A stretch of DNA of 64,000 bases from Heptranchias perlo (taxonomy: Eukaryota): assembly GCF_035084215.1 (NCBI RefSeq), contig NC_090333.1, positions 78,678,001 through 78,742,000 on the forward strand, given 5' to 3'. The position numbers were made by a program, and so were the translations under genes. Of this stretch, positions 47,985 through 49,402 are shown piece after piece. The notes under the pieces were generated by a model that had not been told where the DNA came from, made no database searches, and saw only the letters and a list, made by a program, of their open reading frames with translations. Numbering within the stretch: the first letter of the stretch is position 1; each line of letters opens with the position of its first letter.

Positions 47985-49162
47985 TGCAGAAAAGGTAATT
48001 TGTCTAAAAAGCTCCCATGAAGAACCTTGGGACATTTTACTACGTTAAAAGCGCTATATAAATGCAATTTGTTGTAAATTTTGTACACTAGATGAAACTA
48101 GACCATGGCACATGGACCAGGCGAAGGGTGGGGGGGGCACTGGCTTCAACGGCGAACAGCAAATTTAGGATTTAGGCTGGGACATTTCTCATACACAGTG
48201 TGATCACTGATTGAAATGGACTTCCAGGTAAAGTAGTGGAGGCAAAAGCTTAGAACCATTTCAGACGTAGTTGGATAGTTATGATGGGGGTCAGGCGGAA
48301 TGGGGGGGGGGATGGAACGGCAGATTTTCTCTAAGATGGACGAACTAAGATGGCCTGAATTATCTCTTTCATTTGTATTTCTCTTGATCTTGTAATTCAA
48401 ATGGCTGTAGGTTAAAGCTGGGCTGCAATCATCCACAACCGACCAAGAGTCTCAACTCGGAGCGAACAGCTCTGATCTACCGGACTCTGCATCGCGTGTT
48501 CGAATCTTCTCCTCTGACTCCTCCCGGGCTCAATGTTAACACAAAAAACAGCAGGTAGCGTATTGCTAGAAGTCTCATTTTCGAACTTATTTCTCTATAT
48601 TTTTATTAATTAAATCTTTATGGAAGACTCATACAGTCCAGAACTGGGGGTTCCCTGATGCTTTGGGAGTGGTCCTGAGCCACACAGACCATGAGCATAT
48701 ACCCAGTTTGGTGTTGAGTTTGCTGATGTCTGTGAGGGCTGCTGCAATGGGCTTCACTGCTGGGCGGGGGGAGGGGAAGAGAGAGAGAGAGAGAGAGATG
48801 GAACCATAGTCCTGCAAAGGTCAAGGGTAATGGGCACAAAGTAAAATCAATCATAAACACATATTACAGTCGGGTGAATAAGAATCTTCAGTGTAGCCCG
48901 TGTAATAGATAACACGTACTCATCAAAGGCAGCTCGCTCTTCTATACAGCTCAGTATCTCAACACGTGTCTGTAAGACCTCCTTTCAGTAGCAGATATTC
49001 ACTGGACCAAATTGTAAAACCAGGCTGAGCTTCTTGTGCAGAACTAATCTATTAAAAAAAAAATAATGTACTTGTTTGAATGTTTTGGAAATCTGGAGGA
49101 AGAAAATACTGAAGGCCCCACATTGTGGTTCCAGGTTTTCCGTTCATGCTTTGTTTTATCCA

Positions 49163-49377
49163 TGATGTGGAGATGCCGGTGATGGACTGGGGTTAACAAT
49201 TGTAAACAATTTTACAACACCAAGTTATAGTCCAACGATTTTATTTTTAATCCCACAAGCTTTCGCGGGCTTTCCCCTTCCACCGCCTGAGGAATGGGAA
49301 AGCCCCCGAAAGCTTGTGGGATTAAAAATAAAATAGTTGGACTATAACTTGGTGTTGTAAAATTGTTTACAATTGTT
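49163..49377. mobile_element. Penelope-derived non-autonomous hairpin element with 12-bp target-site duplication
   Basis: Near-perfect ~86-bp inverted arms at 49195-49280 and 49291-49377. TTGTTTTATCCA occurs at 49151-49162 and 49373-49384. Confidence 0.85.
49283..49319 (+). ncRNA. Minimal type I hammerhead ribozyme motif
   Basis: Stem I CCGC/GUGG, core CUGAGGA (49287-49293), stem II GGG-AAAG-CCC, GAAA (49308-49311), palindromic AGCU stem III and predicted cleavage after CUU at 49315. Confidence 0.65.
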
Positions 49378-49402
49378 TTATCCAGCAATACATCGCCCCA
49401 CA

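Follow-up and report, generated by a model that had tools for sequence, protein, structure and literature searches.

A 234-base hairpin with a damaged minimal hammerhead is very probably a dead, truncated insertion of a Penelope-like element

The locus is a 234-base hairpin lying in the window, by which we mean the whole 64-kb stretch of DNA that was analysed. Its arms (49195-49281 and 49291-49377) are 87 nt each, 97% complementary and separated by a 9-nt spacer, close to the near-perfect arms of about 86 bp described in an earlier sequence-only reading; the three mismatches correspond to right-arm positions 49295, 49306 and 49335. The fold has a z of -19.5, and none of 200 shuffled sequences was as stable. 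An exact 12-nt direct repeat (49151-62 = 49373-84) bounds the hairpin, its right copy sharing 5 nt with the arm end, as had been reported for a 12-bp target-site duplication overlapping that end; our comparisons support the duplication. The features are given below, with the observations on which each assignment is based.

49151..49162, left target-site duplication, 12 nt, whose last 1-3 nt may match the element end too (direct-repeat search; family contigs, variously flanked, end at 49162/49163)
49163..49194, minus strand, Penelope-type tail of 32 nt, at one end only (no mirror image; family end and highest family depth; tails of 30-40 bp in PMC11167929, PMC8557442 and PMC3846280)
49195..49281, minus strand, main copy: 3' part of the pseudo-LTR (pLTR), 5'-truncated within the hammerhead core, starting at N7, with no CUGA and a stem II mismatch at 11.2 (arm alignment)
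49282..49377, plus strand, tail-less inverted pseudo-LTR copy, head to head (arm alignment; joints of two other contigs resume at 49281)
49282..49290, plus strand, unmirrored apex formed by the 5' strand of stem I and CUGA (9-nt spacer)
49283..49319, plus strand, minimal type I hammerhead with an extra A after A9, a U10.1.C11.1 mismatch, a 3-bp remainder of stem II, a palindromic stem III and a predicted cut after U49315 (residue numbering as compared with PMC4209133)
49327..49332, plus strand, AATAAA 3' of the hammerhead, with its mirror at 49240-45 (sequence)
49373..49384, right target-site duplication, 4-5 nt in common with the arm end (direct-repeat search; organism B contig resumes at 49377)
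9048-9815, 21640-22335, 42894-43334, 46357-46755, 53276-53746 and 57706-58515, six RVT_1 fragments (ORF domain search)

The hairpin is not symmetrical. The left repeat is separated from the left arm by 32 nt (49163-49194), overlooked in the sequence-only reading, that lack a mirrored counterpart; in the minus-strand sense 24 of these 32 are A or C, and the segment fits a Penelope 'tail'. Since this one-sided segment fits such a tail, the main copy is on the minus strand, where it is cut inside the hammerhead core and joined head to head to a tail-less inverted copy. The minus-strand order is duplication, tail-less inverted copy, truncated copy with tail, duplication. Joints of two other contigs resume at 49281, and the start of the inverted copy is therefore family sequence. 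The AATAAA downstream of the hammerhead may be a polyadenylation signal. The total insert is about 210 nt; the ORF body is wholly missing, and no ORF runs through the pseudo-LTR and tail in either arm.

Because 4-5 nt of the direct repeat overlap the arm end, the length of the duplicated target is 7-12 nt. A scan of the window for the same repeat geometry returned 29 of 63,500 positions, in one cluster, all of them at this locus. In family copies elsewhere, the match extends through the TTTTAT portion of both copies of the duplication. Contig ends accumulate at 49154 (43, in run X4) and at 49381 (27 and 26), a hint of target-site preference. Several family pieces begin at 49160-49162, and the tail may run on into a minus-strand ATG at its tip, possibly the start codon of the parent or target microhomology.

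On the plus strand, stem I (49283-86/49316-19) has 4 bp, one of them G.U. The core from C3 to A9 occupies 49287-93, followed by the extra A at 49294; GAAA lies at 49308-11, the palindrome AAGCTT at 49310-15, and H17 is U49315. The marks of a minimal hammerhead of Penelope-like elements (PLEs) are thus present in the invariant core, the extra nucleotide after position 9 and the palindromic 15.2-16.2. However, the conserved G10.1-C11.1 pair is lacking: position 10.1 is U49295 facing C11.1 (C49307), then three G-C pairs, and the other register would need two extra nucleotides. The motif had been called an intact minimal hammerhead; its minimal type I core stands, its intactness does not. The mirror arm, which begins at N7, has a G at 10.1 and a mismatch at 11.2. 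With U10.1 in one arm and the 11.2 mismatch in the other, stem II is broken once in each arm, which accounts for two of the three differences between them; it had been noted correctly that the minus-strand arm lacks CUGA, but stem II, said to be kept there, carries this mismatch of its own. The parent hammerhead was presumably intact. Among the family contigs none is listed with another letter at 49295, so that U10.1 may be no private change. In PMC4209133, PLE minimal hammerheads are described with an extra nucleotide, a palindrome and a highly conserved G10.1-C11.1 pair, with no cleavage as monomers and low cleavage as dimers.

A descriptor of the minimal hammerhead, written post hoc with the motif already known, matched once in the window; in 200 Markov sequences of 64 kb it matched 0.025 times on average. 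The search with Rfam models that had been proposed as a check gave 14 weak matches, none of them a hammerhead, and no hammerhead model reached the gathering score; we take the miss to reflect models that do not cover minimal motifs rather than a refutation. There is no second copy within the 64-kb window, which holds one complete core and its inverted partner. A look-alike at 47721-45 (72%) was taken as chance.

Other elements of the window are recorded here in their own right. An HDV-like ribozyme lies at 27228-27303 on the plus strand (CPEB3 model, 47.2 bits, gathering 35; single copy in the window), with an (AAC)n run about 45 nt past it, and the two probably mark where a short retroelement ends. 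Hammerhead-like boxes, now decayed, occur in a further, unrelated repeat family of greater age (67-84% alike) at ~51850-52031, ~30510-30642, ~38272-38346 and ~45088-45180; the first two loci, at the least, each hold a head-to-head pair, and to judge by their resemblance these are probably older PLE fold-backs. Palindromic or inverted-repeat elements (70-89% alike) are found at 61882-62061, at 50976-51096 with 51353-51465, at 14422-14528 and at 1540-1583 with 1851-1894, and a tandem array with a unit of about 21 nt at ~51100-51260 lies within the inverted element 50976-51465. The palindromes 61882-62061, 14422-14528 and 45008-45057 were tried as relatives of the 234-base hairpin and gave no alignment with it. 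Among the 56 window ORFs of at least 110 aa, the six RVT_1 matches are LINE-like by appearance, and no GIY-YIG or host-gene domain was found.

The plus-strand RNA would carry the antisense arm ahead of the ribozyme. In computed folds of a transcript ending at 49319, the forced hammerhead lies 28 kcal/mol above the hairpin; for the full-element RNA the difference is 44 kcal/mol and the pair probabilities of stem I are ~1e-28. Removal of the left arm narrows the gap between the hammerhead fold and the minimum to ~2.5 kcal/mol. The suggestion that the long hairpin would compete with ribozyme folding agrees with this predicted 28-44 kcal/mol in favour of the hairpin. The minus strand has the tail and no CUGA, and neither strand has both an exposed ribozyme and the tail. 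Because the antisense arm comes first and no strand combines an exposed ribozyme with a tail, co-transcriptional cleavage would be unlikely unless transcription starts at the apex; the order of the arms argues against the proposal that such cleavage could rescue the ribozyme. With G10.1 lost and the antisense arm masking its sequence, the hammerhead is most likely inactive in cleavage.

We compared the window with public contigs (4 of 9 runs, at 80% likeness; X2, X4 and X5 are one sample, from organism A). In two DNA runs of one sample, 13,554 and 13,730 contigs match the window. Summed depth is 5-10 over the flanks, reaches ~3.3e6 in the tail, is still 1.6-1.9e6 at the 3' end of the pLTR and drops to 0.8-2e5 over the hammerhead; this quantity differs from copy number, and the gradient could partly reflect diverged subfamilies. 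The comparison shows a very abundant repeat that thins toward its 5' side; the heterogeneous flanks and the drop in depth from tail to hammerhead are those of a dispersed repeat with 5' truncation. Long heterogeneous loose ends precede 49162/49163 in 69, 41 and 78 contigs (18 of 391 rows), and the family therefore ends at the tail tip. Of 39 joints, all of the 15 listed run from left arm to right arm, at differing points. Among the 12 of 39 rows listed with intervening letters are eight distinct forward joints, of which seven skip the whole hammerhead and one resumes at 49281; two distinct back-going joints correspond to tail-to-tail arrangements. These joints, all from one sample, are short-sided (20-28 nt), and since unitigs break at palindromes, copies with the same junction could be missed among them. 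Sister copies retain GAAAGCTTGTG with a different stem II strand, and U17 is therefore a family trait. In X5, a presumed RNA run, 2,823 contigs match the family; they cover family sequence and one flank, and no listed piece spans the unique junctions of the 234-base copy. Pattern scans of metagenome, prokaryote-genome and viral contigs found no match in any of the three sets, which is what one would expect of an animal repeat.

A contig of organism B (659 nt, run X9, presumed RNA) aligns to 48978-49111 and 49377-49580, with 53 letters between the aligned blocks as compared to 265 in the window, so that organism B is about 210 nt shorter here. A clean empty site would give 43; this one contig fits an empty site with 10 letters above expectation. 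The flanks of organisms A and B show 13 differences in 325 positions (~4%), and the simplest reading is that the insertion postdates a split of about 4% flank divergence. In run X9, 1 of 558,189 records matched, and this was a flank, compared to 2,823 of 1,417,357 in X5; the expansion of the subfamily probably postdates the split likewise. Alternatively, a reverse transcriptase skip or a deletion in organism B may account for its short site. The divergence of the arms is 3/87 (95% interval 0.7-10%).

Taken together, these observations make it very probable that the 234-base hairpin was left by an endonuclease-positive (EN+) PLE as a dead insertion with extreme 5' truncation. By three tested features it belongs to the EN+ PLE insertions with an inverted pLTR and a tail: an inverted, 5'-truncated pLTR copy sits head to head at the 5' end, a tail in the 30-40 bp range (32 nt) is present at one end only, and the family is a dispersed repeat with 5' truncation. 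The 12-nt repeat is a probable target-site duplication, at a site where organism B is about 210 nt shorter. The Penelope origin with a minimal type I hammerhead, as well as the relatively young age, both put forward in the sequence-only reading, agree with the anatomy, the published papers and the contig comparison.

That reading had gone further and seen in the whole hairpin a retrozyme-like unit mobilised in trans. Such a non-autonomous unit would be transcribed, cut by its own hammerhead (singly, dimerised or aided by protein) and reinserted by a PLE. Every invariant core nucleotide and the palindromic stem III are indeed present, the hammerhead fold comes within ~2.5 kcal/mol of the minimum once the left arm is gone, pLTR sequences can be mobilised in trans (PMC3846280), and the family is abundant in the presumed RNA of X5 (2,823 contigs). 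However, G10.1 is lost, the strand with the ribozyme has no tail and the tailed strand no CUGA, the antisense arm comes first and masks the motif, and the junctions of the copies vary and mostly lack the hammerhead. Retrozymes, moreover, are described as tandem repeats with canonical hammerheads (PMC7229834); we found neither head-to-tail tandem monomers nor a canonical type I hammerhead, and the window has no second copy. The core is minimal and mutated and the tail one-sided, so we abandon this proposal as very hard to sustain. We consider it highly improbable, though a little easier to entertain, that the source was a dedicated short PLE derivative without ORF (pseudo-LTR plus tail, SINE-like), amplified by PLE protein and rebuilding the inverted half at each insertion. 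Very high abundance confined to about 130 nt, a subfamily seen in the runs of organism A and not in that of organism B, and the finding that a short RNA segment suffices for the PLE protein PAc in vitro (PMC11167929) would suit it, but extreme 5' truncation of a full-length PLE looks identical.

A DNA transposon of the MITE type, or a fold-back duplicated locally, with a hammerhead present by coincidence, would explain the near-perfect palindrome and the direct repeat, and unrelated palindromic elements also occur in the window. Inverted repeats at both termini and a fixed structure are nevertheless absent: 32 nt are unmirrored at one end and the junctions are variable. The hammerhead descriptor is expected only 0.025 times per random 64 kb, and sister copies retain the motif GAAAGCTTGTG with a different stem II strand, which leaves this explanation scarcely credible.

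We return to the truncated PLE insertion and propose how it may have arisen. In PMC11167929, PAc (an anole PLE protein, Penelope/Poseidon) cuts and extends both strands and favours AT-rich DNA, its reverse transcription begins at two sites bounding the tail, and its insertion in vitro is as efficient with a dead hammerhead, which cleaves only with the protein. From published PLE biochemistry, a PLE protein would nick both target strands about 8-12 nt apart. Reverse transcription would be primed by one nick at the tail tip and by the other where the pseudo-LTR and the tail meet, and both cDNAs would stop early, at ~119 and 96 nt. Their 3' ends would then join at the apex, possibly via a 5-nt CTTCC/GGAAG microhomology. 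In X5, a CTTCCA motif lies immediately upstream of stem I at one joint, which hints weakly at such microhomology at the apex. The mirror half would be made at insertion, and the hammerhead would be a passenger that the longer cDNA reached by chance. We lean slightly towards this two-cDNA route; fold-back self-priming on the antisense strand could give the same product and is held as a tentative second possibility.

The single locus matters little, being one among very many dead PLE ends. A family of young fold-back stumps with clean duplications is nevertheless a natural data set for the unsolved second half of PLE integration. It is conceivable, although improbable, that a very short Penelope derivative without ORF underwent a burst specific to this lineage and filled the genome with fold-back stumps, some of which may be recopied as whole hairpins; if so, they would form a self-propagating, non-autonomous class of PLE. 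Whether or not this burst took place, thousands of near-identical junctions could separate two-cDNA joining from fold-back self-priming, steps so far unvalidated for PLEs, and would also show the target motif of the endonuclease. The stumps, if transcribed, might be a source of perfect double-stranded RNA. The locus also calls for caution, as a hairpin tipped by a hammerhead gives no ground for inferring a retrozyme.

The mirror-image-plus-tail layout has already been published for PLEs, and the locus is mostly ordinary, one more such insertion. A literature search, without Repbase and most subscription journals, found no paper devoted to shark PLE fold-backs. An inverted pLTR with a tail is the typical PLE layout (PMC8557442; PMC8969392), the head-to-head arrangement is the commonest and self-priming has been proposed for it (PMC3846280), and opposite-strand dual minimal hammerheads 100-700 bp apart have been ascribed to truncated PLEs (PMC4209133). 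Pen2a_Av has an adjacent inverted pLTR, a 9-bp target-site duplication and a 31-bp tail (PMC3846280), compared to 32 nt for the tail here. With the complex insertions of EN+ PLEs (PMC3846280, PMC11167929, PMC8557442) our locus shares the head-to-head inverted 5' copy, the one-sided tail, a target-site duplication of 8-12 nt, 5' truncation and the pLTR hammerhead; it differs in that only about 210 nt of insert are left, without any ORF body. PAc primes without target homology (PMC11167929), whereas at our locus the arm end and the duplication have 4-5 nt in common. Compared to metazoan non-LTR retrozymes (Cervera and De la Pena 2020, PMC7229834), the element is likewise short, protein-free and low in GC, with a type I hammerhead and a target-site duplication of more than 4 bp, but it is inverted instead of tandem, has a minimal instead of a canonical hammerhead and a PLE tail, and is known from contigs, those of X5 being presumed RNA, rather than as the abundant circular RNA of unit length that would mark a retrozyme. 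Finally, the motif shares with the minimal hammerheads of metazoan PLEs (Cervera and De la Pena 2014, PMC4209133) the CUGANGA/GAAA core, one extra nucleotide after position 9, a 4-bp stem I and the palindromic 15.2-16.2, whereas U.C replaces G10.1-C11.1, H17 is U, and stem II has 3-4 bp as compared to 7-8 bp in the schistosome motifs.
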